Positions 43,773 through 53,706 of a stretch of DNA of 64,000 nucleotides are shown one piece after another. The translations under genes were made by a program, and so were the position numbers. The notes beneath the pieces are model-generated. The model had not been told where the DNA came from. It made no database searches and saw only the letters and a list, made by a program, of their open reading frames with translations. Origin of the DNA: Clostridia bacterium. Lineage in GTDB: Bacteria > Bacillota > Clostridia > UMGS1883. Each line of letters opens with the position of its first letter. Positions within the stretch are counted from its first letter, which is position 1. The stretch lies in assembly GCA_045661145.1 (NCBI GenBank), contig JAZRFC010000087.1:4431-68430 (forward strand). Reading direction: 5' to 3'.

Positions 43773-43847
43773 GCCCTCGTAGTAAAGCGGATATTACAAG
43801 CCCCTCCTAAGGGCTAGTCATCGGTTCGATTCCGGTCGGGGGTGCCA
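43773..43847 (+). tRNA. tRNA-Arg (anticodon CCT), CCA encoded
   Basis: Hand-folded cloverleaf. Acceptor GCCCTCG/CGGGGGT (G1-U72 and U5-G68 wobbles), D stem GTAA/TTAC, anticodon stem AGCCC/GGGCT with loop CTCCTAA, T arm ATCGG-TTCGATT-CCGGT, discriminator G plus CCA. Confidence 0.85.
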
Positions 43848-43899
43848 AAAGAGACAAACGCTTTTTATAACATAGTTATAATTATGTTTGTCTCTTTTT
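43848..43899 (+). terminator. Terminator-like hairpin after the tRNA
   Basis: AAAGAGACAAAC...GTTTGTCTCTTT 12-bp stem with a structured 26-nt loop, followed by TT. Confidence 0.55.
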
Positions 43900-44096
43900 C
43901 TATGCAAATTTAACATAAAAGGAGAATATGAATTAGCAGAATTGCTTAGGAAAATTTAGGTAGATGAACAAAATTTAATGAATAAAACATTACTATGATG
44001 ATGTTTTAAAATTGGATATTACAAATTTTGAGCACATTTTGAGTGAAATCAAGATGTGCTTTTTTTATTTTAAAAGTACAAAGGAGGAAACTTACA

Positions 44097-44489
44097 ATGA
44101 CAAATAGCGAAATTAGAACTACAAAAAACATCAAACTTAAGGAGGAAGATAAAATGATGAAATTGGATTTGTATGAATCAAGATTGTTTGGTAGAATTTG
44201 TTACGGGTTTGGTAGAGATGAAGACGGCTATGTTTACATCAAAGATGATGAAGCTAATGTGGTTAGAATGATTTATGACATGGCTATTAATGGTCACAGT
44301 TTGCAGAATATTCAGGCAGAATTGTATAACCGTGGCGTTAAATCACCATCAGGTAAAGATAAGTGGACAAGGGACGTTATTGATAAAACTATAAATAACA
44401 AAAAGTATTTAGCTTATATTATTTCATTCGAAAATTTCGTTGAAGCATCTATCGAAAAAGAATCTCGTTGCAGATACATCAGAAGTTAG
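44097..44489 (+). CDS. Stand-alone 'Recombinase' domain protein (serine-recombinase fragment lacking the catalytic resolvase domain)
   Basis: YGFGRDEDGYVYIKDDEANVVRMIYDMAINGHSLQNIQAELYNRGVKSPSGKDKWTRDVIDKTINNKKY matches the central domain of large serine recombinases. No S-catalytic N-domain. AAAGGAGG precedes ATG 44097. Confidence 0.6.
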   Translation: MTNSEIRTTKNIKLKEEDKMMKLDLYESRLFGRICYGFGRDEDGYVYIKDDEANVVRMIYDMAINGHSLQNIQAELYNRGVKSPSGKDKWTRDVIDKTINNKKYLAYIISFENFVEASIEKESRCRYIRS

Positions 44490-44552
44490 CCTGGGGACAG
44501 AATTGCTGATTTGTTATATAATTCTATTATTAAAGTGAAAGGAGAATTGGAT

Positions 44553-45128
44553 ATGGACAAATCAGCAATTCAAAATCAGCTAAGGTATATCATTGCAAAA
44601 GAGCAGTATATGAAGCCGCTACTGGAAAATGAAATTATAACTGAAGAGGTGTATAACGAAGTATTAGTAAATCTGTATGATGAATTTGAGGTCTGGAGGT
44701 ATAGCAGAATTCAAAATCCAAGTGTTGAATTTAGAAAGACGAAAAGAGAGACAAGAAACGATTTATTGGAGCAAAATCCAGGATATATTTCTTTAACAGA
44801 ATTAGCAAGAAGTAAACCACAAAAATCAACAGGTTACACTATTCAAATGTGGTTAAGAGATAGTGGAACCGTTGATTTTCTTTCTTTGTGGGAGAATAAG
44901 TACAATGAAAAATTTCTTCCTATTTCGGTAGAATTAAACACTTTAACACCGAAATTGTGGATAAAAGAAACAAATTCTATCGGAATTGTATCAAGGCAGG
45001 GAAAGAATGGAGGGACATATGCACATAAAGAAATAGCAATGCATTTTATGTGTTGGCTATCTGCAGAAATGATGCTAAATGTTATAGAGAAATACTTGGA
45101 GGTAATGAATGATGAGAAAGATAACTGA
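44553..45128 (+). CDS. KilA-N domain-containing protein
   Basis: C-terminal half ISLTELAR...IQMWLRDSGTVDFLSLWE...TPKLWIKETNSIGIVSRQGKNGGTYAHKEIAMHFMCWLSAEM follows the KilA-N pattern. Confidence 0.65.
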   Translation: MDKSAIQNQLRYIIAKEQYMKPLLENEIITEEVYNEVLVNLYDEFEVWRYSRIQNPSVEFRKTKRETRNDLLEQNPGYISLTELARSKPQKSTGYTIQMWLRDSGTVDFLSLWENKYNEKFLPISVELNTLTPKLWIKETNSIGIVSRQGKNGGTYAHKEIAMHFMCWLSAEMMLNVIEKYLEVMNDEKDN

Positions 45129-46650
45129 AATTCCAGCTACAATTTTCAAACAGTCAACAGACATAAATAAACAATATAGAGTAGCGGCATACTGTAGGGT
45201 CAGTACAGATAAAGAAGAACAAGAGAATAGTCTGGAAAATCAAATTACATATTACAAAAACAAAATTGAGAATACACCTAATTGGACTTTAGTTGATATT
45301 TTTGCTGATTTTGGCATAAGCGGAATGAATGATAAAAACAGAATTGAATTTCAAAGAATGATTGAGATGTGTAATAAAGGAAAAATAGATTTGATTATCA
45401 CAAAGTCAATTTCACGATTTGCAAGAAATACGGTTGATTGTCTAACACATGTGAGAAAACTAAAAGCGAACAATATTGGAGTCATTTTTGAAAAGGAAAG
45501 TATAAATACACTTGATGCAGTTAGTGAAACATTTCTAACATGGTTTAGTGCTTTTGCTCAAGCTGAAAGTGAGTCACTTAGCCAAAATGTAACCAGAGGT
45601 AAAAGGATGGGGTATAAGGAAGGAAAGTTTACTTTTCCTCCATTCTTATATGGATATGATAGAGGTGATGGAATAACTCCTGTTATAATTCCAGAACAGG
45701 CAGCAATCGTTCGCAAAATCTTTCATATGTACTTGGAGGGAAATTCCATAGGCGGAATTAGGAAATGGCTTAACGATAACAACATAGAAACAACAAAGGG
45801 TATAGGTGAATGGAACAAATCTACTGTGTCTGGAATATTAAAAAATGAAAAATATAAAGGTGATGTACTCCTGCAGAAAAGTTATACGGTAGATTATCTC
45901 ACAAAAACAATAGCAAGAAACAAAGGTGAGGTAACACAATATTATATTGAAAATAACCATGAAGGAATTGTGTCACGGAAAATATTCGATATGGTGCAGG
46001 ATGAAATGCAAAGAAGGGCAAGTTTATACAGTAGTAAAACTCCAAGCAAATATAGTTCTAAATATGCTCTCACAGGCAAGGTGATCTGCGGAGAATGTGG
46101 TGCTAAGTACAGAAGAGTTACATGGTCACGAAATGGCAAAAAGAAAATTGTATGGAGATGTACAGAAAGGCTCACTAATGGCACTAAGAACTGTAAGAAT
46201 TCACCAACCATACTTGAAGAAGACTTGCATAATGAAATACTTAACAATTTAAAAGAGATATTGCCTATGTCAGACGATATAACTCAAAAAGTTAAAAATG
46301 AGATTGAGATTGTTTTAATGAAAAAAGATGATAATAATCCACAAGTTATCCAACGTAAAATTAAAAACTTTGAAAAAGAGGCTGAGGTTTTGAGGAATAT
46401 TTTAAAAGAAACAGAGGATAAAGAGTTTTATATCGAAAAAATTAAAAAAATAGAAAATGAATTATTGAAACTAAACAAAGTAAATAGTTTTGCTTCAGTA
46501 AAAGAATCTTATGATTTATTAAATCAAATTAAAAAGATTGTTGACAATAAGGAATTGAATATGGACACATATTTCGACATAGTGATAAGTAAAATAGTTC
46601 AATATATACTAGTATATAGAACAGGGAAAATAAATGTTATTTATGATTAA
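45109..46650 (+). CDS. Large serine recombinase (resolvase N-domain + recombinase domain + zinc ribbon + coiled coil)
   Basis: YRVAAYCRVSTDKEEQENSLENQ (catalytic Ser), ITKSISRFARN, recombinase domain (PPFLYGYD...EQAAIVRKIF), CGECGAKYRR...WRC zinc ribbon. 513 aa. Confidence 0.9.
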   Translation: MMRKITEIPATIFKQSTDINKQYRVAAYCRVSTDKEEQENSLENQITYYKNKIENTPNWTLVDIFADFGISGMNDKNRIEFQRMIEMCNKGKIDLIITKSISRFARNTVDCLTHVRKLKANNIGVIFEKESINTLDAVSETFLTWFSAFAQAESESLSQNVTRGKRMGYKEGKFTFPPFLYGYDRGDGITPVIIPEQAAIVRKIFHMYLEGNSIGGIRKWLNDNNIETTKGIGEWNKSTVSGILKNEKYKGDVLLQKSYTVDYLTKTIARNKGEVTQYYIENNHEGIVSRKIFDMVQDEMQRRASLYSSKTPSKYSSKYALTGKVICGECGAKYRRVTWSRNGKKKIVWRCTERLTNGTKNCKNSPTILEEDLHNEILNNLKEILPMSDDITQKVKNEIEIVLMKKDDNNPQVIQRKIKNFEKEAEVLRNILKETEDKEFYIEKIKKIENELLKLNKVNSFASVKESYDLLNQIKKIVDNKELNMDTYFDIVISKIVQYILVYRTGKINVIYD

Positions 46651-46718
46651 ATTGATACTTATTGTATGTTTACTTATTGTGTTCAAGGTGATATACTATA
46701 ATATGAGGTGATATATCT

Positions 46719-46925
46719 GTGGATATTATTAAAGTGTTTTCACTAAATGTGAGGAAATACCGAATTCAAAAAGGATGGTCTCAGGAAGAATTGGCTGAGA
46801 AATCTGATTTACATAGAACATATATTAGTGCGGTAGAATGCGAGAGACGAAGTATTGCTTTAGAAAATATACAGAAGCTAGCGGATGCACTTGAAATAGA
46901 TACATATAAATTGTTTATGGAATAA
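46719..46925 (+). CDS. XRE-family helix-turn-helix transcriptional regulator (68 aa)
   Basis: NVRKYRIQKGWSQEELAEKSDLHRTYISAVECERRSIALENIQKLADAL is the canonical HTH_3 motif. GTG start preceded by GAGGTGA. Confidence 0.85.
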   Translation: MDIIKVFSLNVRKYRIQKGWSQEELAEKSDLHRTYISAVECERRSIALENIQKLADALEIDTYKLFME

Positions 46926-46958
46926 GATATAATTTATTTTTTTGAAAGGAGGATCGAT

Positions 46959-47807
46959 ATGAAAAACAATACTGTGTTTAATAGATTGTTTACGCAATAT
47001 TCTATCAATGATTTGCTTCAGGGTAATGATAATCAAGTATATAAGGCTGTTATTAAAAGAGTATTACAGGATCCTCATTCTAAAAATAATGGTGAAATTA
47101 TAAGTGAGATATATTCTTACATGGGAAAGAATTATCGAAATGAGTATTTTTATCAAAATACCCTTATTAATAAATTGTTATTAGGAAAACATAGTGTAAA
47201 TACAACTACTGCATTAACGCAGATACCTATAAATAAATCAAAAGCAGACTTTATTCTAATAAATGGAAAAGCGGTAGTGTATGAGATAAAAACAGAATTA
47301 GATAGTTTTGTTAGATTGGAAACACAGATAGATGATTACTATAAAGCTTTTAGTGATGTTTGTGTTGTTACCTGTGAAGAAAATTATGATAAATTAAATT
47401 CGATTCTTCAAGGAACTAATGTTGGTATTTGCATATTAACTAAAAGAAACACCCTTAATTTTATAAAAAATCCTATTTCGGATTATAGTAAGATTAGTCA
47501 TGAAATGCTGTTTAAAATCTTACATAAATGTGAATTTGAGAATATAGTAAATGAATATTTTGGCGCATTGCCGACTACGACTCCTGTTTTTTATTATGAT
47601 GAATGTTACAAAAGCTTTGTAAGAATACCTATAATGGAAGCGTATAGTGCTACTTTAAAGCAGTTAAAAAAGAGGAATAAGATATTGAAGGAAGAATTTA
47701 AAAAAGTACCATATGAATTAAAGTCGTTAATGTATTTTTATAGTGAATATGATAATAAATATAAAACATTGCAGAAGTTTTTAAATGAAAATTATGGGAG
47801 GGTCTAA
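46959..47807 (+). CDS. PD-(D/E)xK nuclease-fold-like protein, resembles the 'sce7726 family'
   Basis: 282 aa. Candidate D-x(11)-E-x-K core in SKADFILINGKAVVYEIKTELD (D97, E109, K111). Preceded by GAAAGGAGG. Family name recalled from NCBI naming, not verified. Confidence 0.5.
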   Translation: MKNNTVFNRLFTQYSINDLLQGNDNQVYKAVIKRVLQDPHSKNNGEIISEIYSYMGKNYRNEYFYQNTLINKLLLGKHSVNTTTALTQIPINKSKADFILINGKAVVYEIKTELDSFVRLETQIDDYYKAFSDVCVVTCEENYDKLNSILQGTNVGICILTKRNTLNFIKNPISDYSKISHEMLFKILHKCEFENIVNEYFGALPTTTPVFYYDECYKSFVRIPIMEAYSATLKQLKKRNKILKEEFKKVPYELKSLMYFYSEYDNKYKTLQKFLNENYGRV

Positions 47808-47810
47808 ATT

Positions 47811-48752
47811 ATGTATTTTCCTTATTTGAGAGGCAGACAATATGAGTTGCTTGCATTAAGAGAATTGGTTGAAAAAGATGCAATAAGTAAAAAGATCATA
47901 CCAATTATAGAACCGGTTAAGCTTTCATCCACCCTTTTAAAAACGATGGATGCTTTTATTAAAAACAATAGACAAATGATCGTAATATGCAATCCTGCGG
48001 TAGGGAACTTTGTCACAGATATGAAAACGGATGATAAGAATCAAGAGCAATTTCTTTCGTTGTTGAAAAGTGAAGAAATAATTAAAGGGCATATCATGAA
48101 GAAAATGTCTGCACAATTTATTGATATTTGGAAAAATAAAATGGGAGTGAACAAAGAGGAATGGGTAGTACTTAATAACAAGCGAGAGTTTGTGGATGAA
48201 TATTCTAATATTTTTGCAGAACATCCTCCAAAATTTGTTTTAATACCCGACGAAAGCAACTTTAGAAGAAAAACCAGAGAAGGGAATAATAGAGTTTTAT
48301 TAGCAGATAGATTTAATAAACTAGACAGAAATTCAGATTATTCAAAAAATGAAGATGAGTTTTACTCTGATGATCATTTATATTACGACATTGATGGTTA
48401 TAGAGGTTTTTCGGATTATTCCATAATTGGAAATGATTATTTAGAATCTGGTTTTGCGCCATATGCAGTAGCAATCCATATCATTTATTTAAAACAGGAT
48501 GATAGTTTGTGGGTGCATCATTTTGTTTCAGATTCAAATGACGATATTCAAAACCCTGCAAAAAAATTTTATGAGGCGGTTAGTAAACTTGCAATTTGGT
48601 GCGAAACTAATAATATCGATCTTACAATAGGATTAAAAACATTTATTGAACACTATAATAATCAAACATATCCAGGATTAGGAAGTGTTAAAAAATTGTC
48701 GTTAATGCACCACATAGAATTATTAAGCAAGCTTCTTGATGGGGTGAAGTGA
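47811..48752 (+). CDS. Beta-protein-like / 'sce7725 family'-like protein
   Basis: 313 aa. The N-terminus MYFPYLRGRQYELLALREL matches my recollection of the Beta_protein (P4 beta) and sce7725 families. 3-nt gap from the upstream gene. Confidence 0.5.
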   Translation: MYFPYLRGRQYELLALRELVEKDAISKKIIPIIEPVKLSSTLLKTMDAFIKNNRQMIVICNPAVGNFVTDMKTDDKNQEQFLSLLKSEEIIKGHIMKKMSAQFIDIWKNKMGVNKEEWVVLNNKREFVDEYSNIFAEHPPKFVLIPDESNFRRKTREGNNRVLLADRFNKLDRNSDYSKNEDEFYSDDHLYYDIDGYRGFSDYSIIGNDYLESGFAPYAVAIHIIYLKQDDSLWVHHFVSDSNDDIQNPAKKFYEAVSKLAIWCETNNIDLTIGLKTFIEHYNNQTYPGLGSVKKLSLMHHIELLSKLLDGVK

Positions 48753-49825
48753 TGAATTGTTGTGAAAAGTGTTTTAAGGATATTGAAATCAAAGCCATCA
48801 TAAAGACGCAAGGAAAAAAAGGAAATTGTGATTTTTGTGGGAGCAAAAATACATATATTTCAAATGTTTCAGAGAGTTTGGAAATAAAAGAAAACTTTGA
48901 ACGGTTAATAGATGTATATTCGTCAGAAAGTAGTAGACCAGAGGCATTTCCAAAAGAAAAAATGGATTTGTTAAAAAATATTCTGGCATATAAATGGAAT
49001 ATTTTTAATTTACAACCAGATGCTATATATAGATTTTTGACAACGCTTCTTCCAGAAAGATATATGGAACAACCTGAAATTTTTGACAATCCAGTAGGTA
49101 TATTCGAAGAGATTAATGATGATTATTTGGGAGAGTATTCAATTTTAGGAAAACATCAATGGGAAGATTTCGTTACAGAAATAAAAGAAAAAAATAGATT
49201 CCATACCAATATAATAAATAAGGATGTTTTATCAAAAGTTTTACAAGCCTCATTTAAGGTATATAAAAAGGGAACAATATTTTATAGAGCAAGAACTTGT
49301 CAGGATGAAAGAGGGTATACTAAAAATGAGATGTGGGCGCCACCACCACAAATGGCCTCTAGTGGAAGAGCGAACCCTGAAGGAATTAGTTGTTTGTATT
49401 TGGCTGATTCTATTGACACAACCTTGCACGAAATCAGAGCTGGTATATACGATTATGTAACTGTTGGTAGGTTTGTTTTACAAAGAGATATAGAAGTTGT
49501 TAATTTAGCAGATATAGATAAGATAAGTCCATTCAAGGATTTAGATATTAGCTTGATTGCTGCGAACATTCCTCATTTAATTAAGATCGGACAAAACATA
49601 GCTAAGCCATTAAGAAGATATGATAGTGCTTTAGATTATTTGCCTACGCAGTATATATGTGATTATATTAAGAGTGAAGGGTTTTCAGGTATAGAGTATA
49701 AAAGTACGATGCTAAATGCTGGAACTAATTATGCGATATTTAATGAGAATCTATTTAAGTGCACCAAGACGGAGGTTTACGAGGTGCAATCATTAAACTA
49801 TGGCTATCAATCGGTTCTAAAGTAA
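48752..49825 (+). CDS. RES-domain protein (putative NAD+-targeting toxin) with N-terminal CxxC...CxxC zinc ribbon (HEPN/RES-NTD1-like)
   Basis: N-terminus CCEKCF...GNCDFCG. RES core FYRAR...SGRANPEGISCLYLADSIDTTLHEI (Arg, Glu) and YLPTQYICDYIKSEGFSGIEYKSTM...NYAIFN (Ser). ATGA start/stop overlap with the upstream gene. Confidence 0.8.
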   Translation: MNCCEKCFKDIEIKAIIKTQGKKGNCDFCGSKNTYISNVSESLEIKENFERLIDVYSSESSRPEAFPKEKMDLLKNILAYKWNIFNLQPDAIYRFLTTLLPERYMEQPEIFDNPVGIFEEINDDYLGEYSILGKHQWEDFVTEIKEKNRFHTNIINKDVLSKVLQASFKVYKKGTIFYRARTCQDERGYTKNEMWAPPPQMASSGRANPEGISCLYLADSIDTTLHEIRAGIYDYVTVGRFVLQRDIEVVNLADIDKISPFKDLDISLIAANIPHLIKIGQNIAKPLRRYDSALDYLPTQYICDYIKSEGFSGIEYKSTMLNAGTNYAIFNENLFKCTKTEVYEVQSLNYGYQSVLK

Positions 49826-49877
49826 GCATATAATCTTTACAAATGGAATAACCCAATACATAAGTTAATATTTACAG

Positions 49878-49914
49878 AATCCGACATGCCTCTCAATGAT
49901 GACCATGTCGGGTT
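49878..49914 (+). terminator. Hairpin terminator candidate after the RES gene
   Basis: AATCCGACATG...CATGTCGGGTT stem with a 15-nt loop, followed by ATTT. Confidence 0.45.
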
Positions 49915-49937
49915 ATTTACTAACTAATTATAGAAAT

Positions 49938-50201
49938 ATCACCGATTTTGTCACCGATAATGTCACCAATAGAAAAAACTGTCACCGTTAGGGTGACAGA
50001 TAAGGATAGCTTCTTAAAAAATAGATTAAAGATTGGTGAACCCCAATTTGGACCCCAAAATGAACCCTAAAATTGTATGTGTTGTTGATAAAATTTAAAA
50101 GGTTTACAAGTGAACTGAGGCTTGTTGCATCGTTGGAGATTTTATAGTAAACTTTCATGTAAAGGAATACAACAACAAAATGTCCTATTAAATGTCCCAA
50201 T
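49938..50201. repeat. Three clusters of 12-nt-period tandem repeats in a non-coding gap
   Basis: Set A 49938-49973 (ATCACCGATTTT/GTCACCGATAAT/GTCACCAATAGA). Hairpin CTGTCACC-gttag-GGTGACAG at 49979-49999. Set B 50038-50073 (GAACCCCAATTT/GGACCCCAAAAT/GAACCCTAAAAT). Set C 50178-50201 (AAATGTCCTATT/AAATGTCCCAAT). Confidence 0.7.
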
Positions 50202-50421
50202 AAAATTTGGATAATTACTGAGAGATGGACTCTTGTTTGTGGATGTTACTCATAAGGAGATTGATCGTGTCATGCAAGTTGCTTTTTTAATGAAATTTGA
50301 CTACGACAAGTGAAATAGCTTCGCTGTGTAATACATTTCGTGTACGAAATATTGCTTTTCAATATGAAAAGGCGAAATTTATTCACATTTTTTGAAAGAA
50401 AAATATTTTATAATCCGCAGG

Positions 50422-50455
50422 ATTATTTCATATCAAACAAGTTGATATTTCATTA
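50422..50455 (+). repeat. 34-nt direct repeat, copy 1 (upstream of the Pycsar-like module)
   Basis: ATTATTTCATATCAAACAAGTTGATATTTCATTA is 31/34 identical to 53582-53615. Contains the palindrome ATATCAA..TTGATAT. Confidence 0.8.
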
Positions 50456-50570
50456 AATGTTTGAAATATAGTTTACCTTTCCTACATAAACAGAATAATT
50501 TGAATATTAAGAAGCTTTTTCGCAATTTTATTATTTTTCACAATTGACTTTTTTTGAGTTTTATATTAAA

Positions 50571-50867
50571 ATGAGAATAGAGGTGAAGGATGTGGATAAA
50601 TTAAATACTGTAAAGAAAATAATATCATATGTAAAACCCAAAATAGATTTATATCGAAGTTTTCCAGAGAAAGAGGAAGATATCATTCAATCTCTAACAA
50701 TAATTTTTGATATTAACTCAGAATGTTGGCCTAGAATAATTAAAGACGGAGTTTTTGTAGAATCTTTTAAAAAAGATATGGGGAAAGCTAGAATGACAGC
50801 TTTAGAAAAGTTACTGTATAAATTAGATGAGCAACATTATAAAAGAATCATGTTTATAAATGATTAA
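50571..50867 (+). CDS. Hypothetical protein (about 92-99 aa), first gene of the Pycsar-like module
   Basis: ORF downstream of TTGACT(50544)-17 nt-TAAAAT(50567). Start is ambiguous (ATG 50571, or GTG 50592 with GAGGTGA SD). No recognisable domain. Confidence 0.4.
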   Translation: MRIEVKDVDKLNTVKKIISYVKPKIDLYRSFPEKEEDIIQSLTIIFDINSECWPRIIKDGVFVESFKKDMGKARMTALEKLLYKLDEQHYKRIMFIND

Positions 50868-50963
50868 AAAAAGACACATACATGTTGTTTTAAGCATATA
50901 ATTATAAAGAGAGCACAGAACTAGGTTTAAGCATAGCACCGAGGTTCGTGAAAGGTTGAGATT

Positions 50964-51464
50964 ATGTTAAATACAATGATAATATATATAAATAAACTTG
51001 CTACAGAAGCCAGAAGAGGATGTGAGCAAGAAAATGAGTTTTTAAAAGGTATGCGCAATCTTCAAGAAAATGAAATGCAGCAAGTTGTTGAATCGTTTGG
51101 CGGCAAATTGGAACAAATATCTGATGATTCAATGGAGAGTAATGCACTAATAAGCGGAACACAAGATAATTTTGTTATTAAATATAAAAATTATCATACT
51201 ATAGACATTCTACATGAGTTAGGGCACGCCTTTTTACATTTAGAAAAAAAGAAAAAAGAAAAACCCTTAGATGGAGATTATGGTTTAGATGAGACTTCTG
51301 CATCAGTTTTTGCAAGGGCTTTTTTGATGCCAGAGTATTTATTTTACAATGATGTTATTGAAAATTCTATAAATAGAATATGTGATATTCAGCACATTGC
51401 AGATATGTATAGTACTACATGTTCAGATGTAATAACTCGTGGTCGAGAATTAAATTTGTGGTAG
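50964..51464 (+). CDS. ImmA/IrrE-family (M78, DUF955) zinc metallopeptidase
   Basis: HEXXH motif in ILHELGHAFLH, followed by SASVFARAFLMPEYLF (the family's E..AN.FA..LLMP-like block). Confidence 0.75.
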   Translation: MLNTMIIYINKLATEARRGCEQENEFLKGMRNLQENEMQQVVESFGGKLEQISDDSMESNALISGTQDNFVIKYKNYHTIDILHELGHAFLHLEKKKKEKPLDGDYGLDETSASVFARAFLMPEYLFYNDVIENSINRICDIQHIADMYSTTCSDVITRGRELNLW

Positions 51465-51478
51465 GTTAGGGGATACAA

Positions 51479-52981
51479 ATGATTAAAATTACGGATATAC
51501 GAGAGAAGGCAAAATCTTATTCTGCTAAATACTATAGGAATTTATATGAGTATTCTGAAGAAAAATTATATATTTTTTTATCTATTGATATATGTGGATC
51601 TACTATTCTAAAAGCAAACAAGGAAAATAGATGGTTTGAAATAAATCGTATTTTATATAACTATGATTTTAATAGAATGAACTTCTGGAAATTAAATGGA
51701 GATGAAGTCCTTTATTACGAAGAATTTAATAACATAAGTCATTTAATAGAAATTATCAAAGAGGCATATAAACATATTAAAAATATGGAGTCTGCAATAA
51801 ATAGTAAAGAAAATAATTTTACAAATGAAATTGTGGGACTTAAGGGTACACTTTGGATAGCAAGAACTGATAAAAGCGATTCAAAAGATTTTGATAGTAT
51901 TCGATTAAAAAATGAAATAATTACGGAATACATAGGTTTAAGTGTTGATGAAGGATTTAGACTCACTCAAAAAGCATCCAAAAGTAAATTAGTAATTGAT
52001 CCTAAAATAGTACATTTATTAAATCAGTCATATTTAGTTTCAGAAAACCCTGATTTGAATTCCTCATTAAAAAAAATGGCATGTAAAGTGAGTAGCAAGG
52101 ATTATATAGATATTTTTACAAACATACGCTTTGTTGGATATACAAAACTGAAGGGGATATGGAAGGATAGAGGATATCCTGTTTTTTGGTATTTTGAAAA
52201 TAAAGATACAGATTATGAATATGATGAACATCTAGATCAAATGTATGTTGGAGACAAAATTAAAAGATGTTATTCTTTTTCGGATGAAAAAGTAAATATT
52301 CATATGGATTTGAATAAAATTTTTGAAAATGTCTCTTTGTCTAATGAAATCAAAAAAATCCTTGCAATTGCAAGTAAAAGTAAGCCACATAAATCAATTG
52401 ACAGTTTTGCTAGGTTATATTATTCTTGTGTTTGTGTAAATACTCATACAAATCATGTGTTGATTGCTAAACGAAGCGAAAAAAGACATCATTTAAAAAA
52501 TGTTTGGGAGTTTGGGATTTCTAAACATACATCGACACCAATTTCTATAGCAGAGGTCATAAAAAACGATTATAAAAATGAATTTGGTATAGATATTGAA
52601 GTTGTTACTGATGGAGAAAAGGAAAATAATATAATACCAATGCATTTTTGTACGATTTATCGCAAAGGGACAAAGCATAATAATATATTATGTTTTGCTA
52701 AAATAGTTGGTGGAGAGTATAAAGATGAAGACTTGATAAAGATTATAAGAAAAAATACTGATAAAAAAAGATATATTGATTTTAAGTTTATTGGTAAAAA
52801 TGATACTCAAAAGTTTGAGACAATTTCCATAGAAGATATTGAAAAAGATTCCATTATGGCAACAAATAACAAATCGAAAGCCTTTGGTGAAAACAGGGCA
52901 GTTATGTATTTTGCACAATCTGTCTCTGCTGCAATAAATTATTTCCAAGATGCTAGGAAGGAGAAAAAATGGTATGAATGA
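51479..52981 (+). CDS. Class III nucleotidyl cyclase (PycC-like) fused to a C-terminal degenerate Nudix-like (AGS-C-like) domain
   Basis: Cyclase blocks FLSIDICGST (metal Asp37), KLNGDEVLYY (Asp75), LKGTLWIA, GLSVDEGFRLTQKA, GYTKLKGIWKDRGYPVFWY. C-terminal aa 312-415: VLIAKRSEKRHHLKNVWEFG...NDYKNEFGI (Nudix-fold-like, catalytic Glu residues mostly absent). Confidence 0.75.
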   Translation: MIKITDIREKAKSYSAKYYRNLYEYSEEKLYIFLSIDICGSTILKANKENRWFEINRILYNYDFNRMNFWKLNGDEVLYYEEFNNISHLIEIIKEAYKHIKNMESAINSKENNFTNEIVGLKGTLWIARTDKSDSKDFDSIRLKNEIITEYIGLSVDEGFRLTQKASKSKLVIDPKIVHLLNQSYLVSENPDLNSSLKKMACKVSSKDYIDIFTNIRFVGYTKLKGIWKDRGYPVFWYFENKDTDYEYDEHLDQMYVGDKIKRCYSFSDEKVNIHMDLNKIFENVSLSNEIKKILAIASKSKPHKSIDSFARLYYSCVCVNTHTNHVLIAKRSEKRHHLKNVWEFGISKHTSTPISIAEVIKNDYKNEFGIDIEVVTDGEKENNIIPMHFCTIYRKGTKHNNILCFAKIVGGEYKDEDLIKIIRKNTDKKRYIDFKFIGKNDTQKFETISIEDIEKDSIMATNNKSKAFGENRAVMYFAQSVSAAINYFQDARKEKKWYE

Positions 52982-53501
52982 AAAACAAACGTTGAGAGAT
53001 ACACTTAATGTTATCAATGAATGGACAAGTAACTGTGATGTTAAGGTTTCTATAATATTGGCGATTTTTGGCGTGGTTTTTTCTGCATTTTTTTCATCAG
53101 ATTATGTAAAAATTTTTATTAAAATAATTAAAAAATGTTTTGATGATGTATCGTTATTTGAATGGATATACATAATTGCATTATTGGCTATTTTACTTGC
53201 AATCATAATAGGTTTTTGGAAACTAATAAGAGTATTGTTGCCAACAATAAATACGGATAAAGAATCTCTAATGTTTTTTGGTGGAATTTCAAAATATAAA
53301 ACACCAGATGAGTATTATAATAAGGTTAAAAATTATTCTGATGACAAGGTTTGTGAAGATTTGATATATCAAATTTATGCGGCCGCAAAGATTTGCACAC
53401 AAAAATTTAAGAATCAAAAAATTGGGCTTTACTGTCTTACCTTTGGAAGCTTTATTTTTGTGATTTGGTGTGTTATAGGATGTTTTGTGTTTTATATGTA
53501 A
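52974..53501 (+). CDS. Small 3-TM membrane effector, PycTM (DUF5706)-like
   Basis: 175 aa. TM segments VSIILAIFGVVFSAFF, IYIIALLAILLAIIIGFW and LYCLTFGSFIFVIWCVIGCFVF. Soluble block SLMFFGGISKYKTPDEYY...IYQIYAAAKICTQKFK resembles the Pycsar effector family. 8-nt overlap with the cyclase gene. Confidence 0.65.
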   Translation: MNEKQTLRDTLNVINEWTSNCDVKVSIILAIFGVVFSAFFSSDYVKIFIKIIKKCFDDVSLFEWIYIIALLAILLAIIIGFWKLIRVLLPTINTDKESLMFFGGISKYKTPDEYYNKVKNYSDDKVCEDLIYQIYAAAKICTQKFKNQKIGLYCLTFGSFIFVIWCVIGCFVFYM

Positions 53502-53581
53502 ATAGGATAAATTGTTAGGTACCTATTTCGTACAAGAGAGCCAGAAAACATTGGTTTTATATTTCGCAATTTACGAAGTAA

Positions 53582-53615
53582 ATTATTTTATATCAACGAA
53601 GTTGATATTTCATTA
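53582..53615 (+). repeat. 34-nt direct repeat, copy 2 (downstream of the Pycsar-like module)
   Basis: ATTATTTTATATCAACGAAGTTGATATTTCATTA with perfect 8-bp palindrome arms ATATCAAC/GTTGATAT. Confidence 0.8.
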
Positions 53616-53616
53616 T

Positions 53617-53644
53617 GAAAATGCCAGACAGTGTTTGGCATTTT
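53617..53644 (+). terminator. Terminator-like hairpin
   Basis: AAAATGCCAGA-cagtg-TTTGGCATTTT. Confidence 0.5.
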
Positions 53645-53676
53645 ATGTTGCATCTATTATGAACGTGAAAGCCACC

Positions 53677-53706
53677 AAAAAAGCAAGTCGTAAGGCTTGC
53701 TTTTTT
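53677..53706 (+). terminator. Rho-independent terminator near the right edge of the island
   Basis: AAGCAAG-tcgtaagg-CTTGCTT followed by TTTT. Confidence 0.55.

Follow-up and report, generated by a model that had tools for sequence, protein, structure and literature searches.

Within a 64,000-nucleotide stretch of a contig from a Clostridia bacterium (GenBank assembly GCA_045661145.1, contig JAZRFC010000087.1, positions 4,431 to 68,430; the whole stretch is called the window here, and positions are counted from its first letter), an operon of four co-directional genes ends in a gene for a RES-domain protein. The question raised by this locus is what the other genes do beside such an enzyme, and whether they constitute with it a defence system that matches no named one, as an initial annotation had proposed. 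The four open reading frames (ORFs) lie where that annotation placed them, all on the plus strand: a helix-turn-helix (HTH) gene (46719-46925, 68 amino acids), a gene of the sce7726/phage-P4 cII family (46959-47807, 282 amino acids), a gene of the sce7725 family (47811-48752, 313 amino acids) and the RES gene (48752-49825, 357 amino acids). Its domain calls were also essentially right, corresponding to an XRE-type HTH, a cII/sce7726 protein with a PD-(D/E)xK-type motif, a Beta-like sce7725 protein and a zinc-ribbon-RES protein with a sub-threshold HEPN_RES_NTD1 match. In our reading, to which we would give a probability of roughly 0.55, the locus is an abortive-infection-type anti-phage cassette borne on a mobile island and made of three translationally coupled core genes, in which the products of the two genes preceding RES would sense infection for, or gate, an effector of the antiphage RES-domain protein (aRES) type. 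The components are of known kinds and their combination appears to be new, and the locus is less novel than the initial annotation thought.

The distribution of the three larger genes indicates that they belong together. A conservation scan with an sce7725 profile, taking one genome per species, rendered at least 342 relatives, and the locus counts given here come from the best 80. The sce7726 gene is located directly upstream of sce7725 in all 80 of these loci and a full-length RES gene directly downstream of it in 76, the four exceptions being two losses, one fragment and one contig end. All intergenic gaps are of 12 nt or less in the 59 loci whose starts could be placed, start/stop overlaps are frequent, and the gaps between sce7725 and RES do not exceed 5 nt. 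Moreover, the pairwise-identity matrices of the three proteins correlate with r = 0.92-0.96. The trio is found in Clostridia, Bacilli, Veillonellaceae, Halanaerobiales and Spirochaetes, and at ca. 30% identity in Proteobacteria, including plasmids of Moraxella, Shinella, Rhizobium and Ralstonia and an integrative and conjugative element (ICE) of Salmonella. It is also present in 19 of 5,426 complete Escherichia coli genomes (among them that of MS 115-1, a strain studied in the laboratory, with the trio WP_000986374, WP_000291755 and WP_000598935), in about half of 37 viral contigs and in prophages. The three-gene arrangement is far beyond chance and conserved across phyla, and the co-occurrence of the three larger genes in other genomes, on which the initial annotation had made its proposal depend, is thus borne out. 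The same cannot be said of the HTH gene, which that annotation had counted as part of the system: it appears in only four of the 80 loci (L007-L010), those of the closest relatives, and it is a lineage-specific add-on rather than conserved core. The system consists of three genes plus an optional regulator; it is not a four-gene unit.

In the window itself, the spacers of 33 nt and 3 nt between the first three genes are as the initial annotation gave them, and Shine-Dalgarno-like motifs (GAGGTG, AGGAGG and GGGAGGG) precede genes 1 to 3. The ATGA start/stop overlap that it placed at 48749-48752 was a misreading, since the bases there are GTGA. The TGA stop codon of sce7725 occupies 48750-48752, and an ATG at 48752 shares one nucleotide with it (TGATG). 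The RES gene likely starts at this ATG, because its homologues begin with M-N-C-C; the alternative GTG at 48749 would yield 358 amino acids, and residues of the RES protein are numbered below from that GTG.

The product of the RES gene matches Pfam RES (PF08808) over residues 179-340 with 64.0 bits, against a cut-off of 23.2 (E = 2.2e-17), and all 30 of its homologues match this family as well. The GRANPEG, LHEI and EYKS motifs and the CxxC-x18-CxxC ribbon that had been noticed in this protein are present and conserved across the 30 homologues, with C8, C27, C30, R180, R182, G206-R207-x-N209, E228, R230, Y317, S319 and T320 invariant, and C4 and C5 nearly so. An N-terminal extension of about 175 residues precedes the RES domain. 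Positions 2-126 of the 131 in the HEPN_RES_NTD1 profile (PF18870) are matched by the protein with 17.3 bits, below the cut-off of 27.4 (E = 0.0061); 16 of the 30 homologues match PF18870 at E <= 0.01 over almost its full length, the best of them at 1.7e-5. Searches of the PDB sequences with the RES protein and with its RES domain only rendered nothing meaningful, and no RES toxin was detectable in this way. Anantharaman et al. (2013), who defined HEPN_RES_NTD1 and originally predicted a nucleic-acid-directed role for RES, described RES fusions some of which have a further N-terminal zinc ribbon. As far as its motifs and profile matches tell, the protein encoded by gene 4 has exactly this architecture of zinc ribbon, NTD1 and RES.

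Proteins of this architecture have been shown to act against phages. The aRES proteins presented in a January 2026 preprint (Osterman et al., bioRxiv 10.64898/2026.01.28.702374) were defined there as stand-alone proteins of 300-600 amino acids with a RES domain, in which HHsearch finds PF18870 with a probability above 80%. According to the same preprint, aRES protects E. coli, converting NAD+ into nicotinamide and ADP-ribose (ADPR)-1''-phosphate, and stand-alone aRES relatives are not toxic in the absence of phage. The RES protein of the cassette resembles aRES in its N-terminal Cys ribbon followed by a HEPN_RES_NTD1-like region and RES, in its length of 357 or 358 amino acids, within the range of 300-600, and in its defence-island context. 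By analogy, it is expected to be an NAD+ phosphorylase effector of the aRES type. On the other hand, it is the last gene product of a coupled and conserved three-gene operon instead of a stand-alone protein, and cassette RES proteins are only 23-26% identical to the stand-alone relatives, which are found on E. coli IncK2/Z, Bacillus cereus and Priestia plasmids. They also differ in that PF18870 is matched with 17-24 bits in the linked proteins, below the cut-off, and with 28.7-40 bits in the stand-alone ones, above it. The Cys ribbon is common to all members of both groups, and there is no clean division between linked and stand-alone proteins by bit score. The aRES gene table of the preprint (Table S2) lists Desulfitobacterium chlororespirans DSM 11544, Paenibacillus sp. 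HW567 and Cohnella kolymensis VKM B-2846, and the three-gene cassette is present in these three strains (L002, L062 and L049, respectively), the correspondence being one of strains. Part of the RES proteins counted as stand-alone aRES is probably partner-dependent. For those members, both the sensing of phage and the counter-defence by aRad1 and NARP1-AP would then have to be read differently.

The first of the two partners, encoded by gene 2, is by its profile matches a bona fide member of the sce7726/phage-P4 cII family. It is recognized by NCBIfam sce7726_fam (1.9e-52) and by the cll model of gop_beta_cll in PADLOC (1e-13), and it is similar by BLASTP (E = 2e-7) to P4 cII, a protein that RefSeq annotates as belonging to the sce7726 family; its homologues carry the newer Pfam family PF26915, Phage_P4_cII. 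An alignment of 29 sequences, P4 cII included, shows E62, D97, E109-I-K111, D115, R119 and Q123 to be invariant, and the series E62/D97/E109-x-K111/Q123 follows the canonical PD-(D/E)xK order (E in helix 1, then D, then ExK, then Q or K). Pfam PDDEXK_3 matches only two of the 29 family members (E = 0.023), and a PDB sequence search with sce7726 gave nothing meaningful. The PD-(D/E)xK-like assignment of the initial annotation stands as regards the motif, which is conserved, whereas the fold is putative, being called from motif conservation.

The second partner, sce7725, matches NCBIfam sce7725_fam (6.8e-110), no Pfam family, PF14350 included, and no PADLOC model, the beta models included; a PDB sequence search with it rendered nothing meaningful. 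When it was compared with P4 Beta by BLASTP and by a shallow profile, only an N-terminal motif common to both proteins (Y-x-P-x-L-R-x-R-x-x-E) was retrieved, with a probability of 2.4%. Comparison of sce7725 and Beta profiles by hhalign rendered 72% (E = 3.3e-5) with smaller alignments and 88% (E = 3.1e-6) with larger ones. Under less stringent settings the two families align from end to end, with the invariant His of one placed opposite that of the other. These profile comparisons indicate that sce7725 is probably a distant homologue of P4 Beta. For the earlier Beta-protein-like call, the basis is the 88% profile-profile match together with the shared gene context, and not detection with Pfam PF14350 or PADLOC. 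An AlphaFold2 model of sce7725, built on an alignment of 57 diverse sequences, has a mean predicted local distance difference test score (pLDDT) of 96.3 and a predicted template-modelling score (pTM) of 0.93, and consists of alternating strands and helices. Foldseek matches of this model in the PDB are TIM barrels (designed barrels, O-GlcNAcase and TrpA) with probabilities of up to 0.99, yet with template-modelling (TM) scores of at most 0.43 and E values of at least 2.6e-3, and these weak matches would correspond to a divergent TIM-barrel-like fold. The invariant polar residues of the family (E34, D202, H223, S240 and K294) suggest that sce7725 could be an enzyme. P4 Beta was not among the viral structures that Foldseek matched to the model. 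The strongest of these matches was an uncharacterised protein of 379 amino acids from Gordonia phage Powerball (BFVD A0A5J6TRS2; E = 5.9e-9, TM 0.53), which is not detected by tblastn with P4 Beta; judging from the model, it may represent a third, actinophage-borne lineage of Beta/sce7725-like proteins.

Two of the three core proteins therefore resemble components of a system with known anti-phage activity. P4 gop-beta-cII confers protection from lambda and P1, and in the absence of Beta its Gop component is toxic (Rousset et al. 2022, PMC9122126); the system is triggered by a phage gene, and gop and beta have been described as a toxin-antitoxin-like pair. Like the cassette, it comprises three genes and is located on mobile elements and, as predicted for the cassette, it has a toxic third component. 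The likeness extends to a cII-family gene 2 and to a gene 3 product that is probably a distant Beta, of similar length and with the N-terminal motif and the paired invariant His. It differs from the cassette in its effector, there being no Gop here and an RES enzyme of 357 amino acids in its place; no similarity between Gop and the cassette RES protein was found by BLASTP or by profile comparison. The layout differs as well: P4 and five Beta-family loci keep a small gene (gop) followed by beta, with cII convergent, whereas the cassette has the order cII-like, beta-like and effector, with all genes co-directional. A further comparison is that with the Xre-RES, MbcTA and ParST toxin-antitoxin systems, which have in common with this operon a RES domain with conserved Arg, Glu and Ser and an XRE-family HTH gene. 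Unlike in these systems, the cassette RES protein bears its long N-terminal extension, and the HTH protein has 68 amino acids without an antitoxin C-terminal domain, is encoded two genes away from RES and is missing from 76 of the 80 loci. The HTH protein was consequently rejected as an Xre-RES antitoxin, on account of its small size, its distance from RES and its lack of conservation. PADLOC 2.0.0 called no system at the operon, and the three-gene combination was found described neither in PADLOC 2.0.0 nor in the literature searched, where sce7725 and sce7726 receive only incidental mentions in genome annotations. The statement that no named defence system matches the operon is accurate for the combination, but not for its parts, given the aRES architecture of the effector and the match of gene 2 to cll of gop_beta_cll.

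Next to related sce7725 genes, which in some cases are accompanied by sce7726, RES can be replaced by other partners, such as Gop-like small genes, GNAT, an HsdR_N nuclease or an M78 peptidase, which suggests that the pair is a conserved core with swappable partners. Two groups of such loci can be mentioned. In L087 (Enterococcus faecium plasmid p114-2) and L092 (OR848224), an unknown protein of 229-295 amino acids, sce7725 and a GNAT acetyltransferase of 170 amino acids are encoded in this order; OR848224 is an unverified record entitled 'Listeria phage LM 4-14-1' whose genes and ORF lengths coincide with those of the Enterococcus plasmid, and is probably not a phage. In the IMG/VR contigs L111, L113, L123, L125 and L127, an HTH protein, an M78 peptidase, an HsdR_N/PDDEXK protein of 363 amino acids, sce7725 and sce7726 are encoded in this order, the pair being thus reversed, a pattern that points to a nuclease-type branch of the family under ImmA/XRE control. 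A much broader proposal, which we put forward tentatively and consider possible rather than probable, is that the cII-like and the Beta-like TIM-barrel proteins constitute a core for sensing and gating that is universal and effector-agnostic within a large defence superfamily not recognised so far, of which P4 gop-beta-cII would be one branch and the RES cassette the most widespread one, the TIM-barrel protein being catalytic and licensing Gop, RES, GNAT and HsdR_N effectors. Such a catalytic protein would make, destroy or modify a small molecule or the effector itself. Were this true, an effector-agnostic core would explain how gop-beta-cII works, and some aRES proteins would be partner-gated instead of self-sensing.

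For the cassette in the window, the mechanism that we propose would operate as follows. The sce7726 and sce7725 proteins would form an effector-independent core, in common with P4 gop-beta-cII, that senses infection and/or gates the effector. Within it, sce7726 would most likely recognise a phage nucleic-acid or protein cue, and sce7725 would most likely restrain or regulate the effector, by analogy with the suppression of Gop toxicity by Beta. Once activated, the RES effector would cleave NAD+ by phosphorolysis into nicotinamide and ADPR-1''-phosphate, and the infected cell would be arrested. A role in defence is plausible from context, since MADS, PARIS, AbiL, AbiQ and Wadjet genes, along with recombinases, relaxases and transposases, are among the immediate neighbours of the cassette in 77 other genomes.

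Several observations weigh against this mechanism. The aRES proteins tested so far work alone and have been described as non-operonic (bioRxiv 10.64898/2026.01.28.702374), so that the partners may be dispensable. Conversely, the sce7725/sce7726 pair occurs without any third gene in L107, L136 and L137, and may have an activity of its own. Intact RES genes without partners are also found. In L006 (GCA_045597205.1), a close relative of the island, a clean deletion of 2.85 kb with a TAT-microhomology junction, equivalent to window positions 45803-48654, has removed the HTH gene, sce7726 and almost all of sce7725, leaving a truncated serine recombinase fused just upstream of an intact RES gene that is 97% identical to that of the window, although the sequence belongs to a metagenome-assembled genome and an assembly artefact is possible. 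In Glutamicibacter, an IS6100 element now stands where the partners would be expected, before a RES gene that is itself intact. The effector may also have another chemistry, since RES enzymes can be ADP-ribosyltransferases, as is ParT, the RES fold supporting both this chemistry and that of MbcT/NatT. As regards the partners, the nuclease fold of sce7726 is putative, its single-sequence structure model having an unusable pLDDT of 35.7, and the alignment of sce7725 to Beta is confident over only about 107 N-terminal residues, PF14350 giving no match to it. Finally, genes 3 and 4 are not covered by any PADLOC 2.0.0 model.

The persistence of intact RES in L006 and Glutamicibacter argues at the same time against a simple antitoxin role for sce7725, and hence bears on the possibility that the cassette is an addiction (toxin-antitoxin) module that stabilises a mobile element, with RES as the toxin, sce7725 as the antitoxin and phage defence as a secondary effect. 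The location of the cassette on plasmids, ICEs and integrative islands would fit such a module, as would the toxin-antitoxin-like description of gop/beta and the fact that RES domains are classical type II toxins. Nevertheless, we find addiction unlikely to be the primary function, because the stand-alone aRES relatives are harmless to uninfected cells, a third conserved protein with a nuclease-type motif would be unnecessary, and sce7725 has enzyme-like invariant residues, unlike a labile binder.

It can also be the case that two independent systems travel together, an aRES that acts on its own and detects phage with its N-terminal domain, and a separate sce7726-sce7725 system. This would be in agreement with the activity of aRES as a single gene, with the existence of the pair-only loci and of RES-only relatives, and with the incomplete separation of linked and stand-alone RES by bit score. 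However, adjacency in 76 of the 80 loci, with a fixed order and gaps of 12 nt or less that are maintained across phyla down to ca. 30% identity, and the parallel divergence of the three proteins speak against mere co-travelling, and the linked RES proteins are uniform in length (ca. 340-365 amino acids) and match PF18870 more weakly than the stand-alone ones, consistent with adaptation to the partners. We therefore regard this explanation as quite improbable. The least probable explanation, that RES does not deplete NAD+ in bulk but is a target-specific ADP-ribosyltransferase (as ParT is on Prs) or acts on nucleic acid prepared by sce7726, with the TIM-barrel enzyme processing an NAD-derived product, could draw on the two chemistries of the RES fold, on the invariant polar residues of two enzyme-like partners and on the early prediction of a nucleic-acid-directed role, but the characterised relatives closest in architecture, the aRES proteins, are NAD+ phosphorylases, and the occurrence of the partner pair with non-RES effectors makes an NAD-specific role for it unlikely.

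As a cassette in which two partners would gate an aRES-type effector, the locus bridges two systems that have been described separately, the single-gene aRES and the mechanistically opaque gop-beta-cII. It thereby offers a tractable route, directly testable in E. coli, to the function of Beta and cII, a question open since 1990. The cassette is common, yet current annotation tools do not call the three-gene unit.

The optional regulator and the expression signals of the operon can be considered together. The HTH protein consists of an HTH_3 domain only (Pfam, 3.6e-15), and its best matches in the defence library are the Control_protein models of PADLOC (E = 1.8e-17 to 1.6e-11), so that it resembles the controller (C) proteins of restriction-modification (R-M) systems and not Xre-RES antitoxins. 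Besides this match, it is like C proteins in being encoded at the start of the operon and in having a conserved repeat over its promoter. This repeat is an operator-like tandem direct repeat on the plus strand (46656-46680), with two copies of TACTTATTGT at a spacing of 15 bp, to which the HTH protein may bind. Part of it coincides with the -35 region, and it lies in a 31-bp block that holds two direct copies of ACTTATTGT. The 31-bp block is 100% conserved in L010, even though its flanks differ there and identity across the operon DNA falls to 73%. The candidate operator differs from those of C proteins, which are typically a palindromic C-box, in being a tandem direct repeat, and no R-M genes are present here. 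From the position of the repeat, we infer that the HTH protein may bind it at its own promoter; in this lineage it would autoregulate the operon through the tandem operator, allowing safe establishment after horizontal transfer.

The promoter-like region itself (46669-46702, plus strand), delimited by a consensus scan and by reading, comprises a -35 element TTTACT (46669-46674), located 17 nt upstream of a -10 element TATACT (46692-46697), which overlaps the TATAAT at 46697-46702. The latter, on which the initial annotation had based its promoter, is indeed present, but it is weak evidence on its own, since in DNA this rich in AT promoter-like matches show no enrichment (35, against 26.4 +/- 6.1 in shuffled sequences). 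The promoter scan was dropped as evidence for this reason, and the conserved 31-bp block is better evidence of a promoter. Downstream of the operon, the stem-loop noted at 49878-49914 (plus strand) is real, with a folding energy of -16 kcal/mol and z = -3.86, and none of 200 shuffled sequences folded as well. It has a weak T-tail and was not called by a strict terminator scan, its loop exceeding 8 nt; it is a probable transcription terminator. Just past it, four copies of GTCACC, three direct and one inverted, are clustered in 48 bp (49950-49997), out of 30 copies in the whole window. On the minus strand, the last two copies make up a hairpin resembling a terminator (49999-49979), and the cluster may be a protein-binding array or a recombination site.

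The operon is located in a low-GC island of ca. 10 kb (approximately 43850-53700), with 27-33% GC against ca. 40-45% in the flanks, whose left end is the 3' end of a tRNA-Arg(CCT) gene (43773-43847). Relatives share the element with 91-96% identity, starting inside the 3' end of the tRNA gene (43823-43845), whereas their right ends differ (49867, ca. 50284 and 53548) and their host flanks are unrelated, which indicates that the island is modular and mobile. Besides the operon, its left part includes a truncated recombinase fragment (44043-44489), followed by a gene for a KilA-N domain protein of 205 amino acids (44511-45128), which PADLOC matches as the candidate single-gene system PDC-S22 (E = 1.9e-33), and by a large serine recombinase gene (45109-46650). 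To the right of the operon, a direct repeat of 34 nt, with 91% identity between its copies (50422-50455 and 53582-53615) and an internal palindrome ATATCAAC..GTTGATAT, flanks a second module of three genes (50964-51464, 51479-52981 and 52950-53501). These encode an M78/ImmA-like peptidase similar to CapP and RmrA, a protein of 500 amino acids for which no Pfam or PADLOC match was found, and a PycTM effector (PADLOC E = 8e-32). From its gene content, this second module looks like a Pycsar-like system, with the cyclase unrecognisable or replaced, that was inserted as a cassette.

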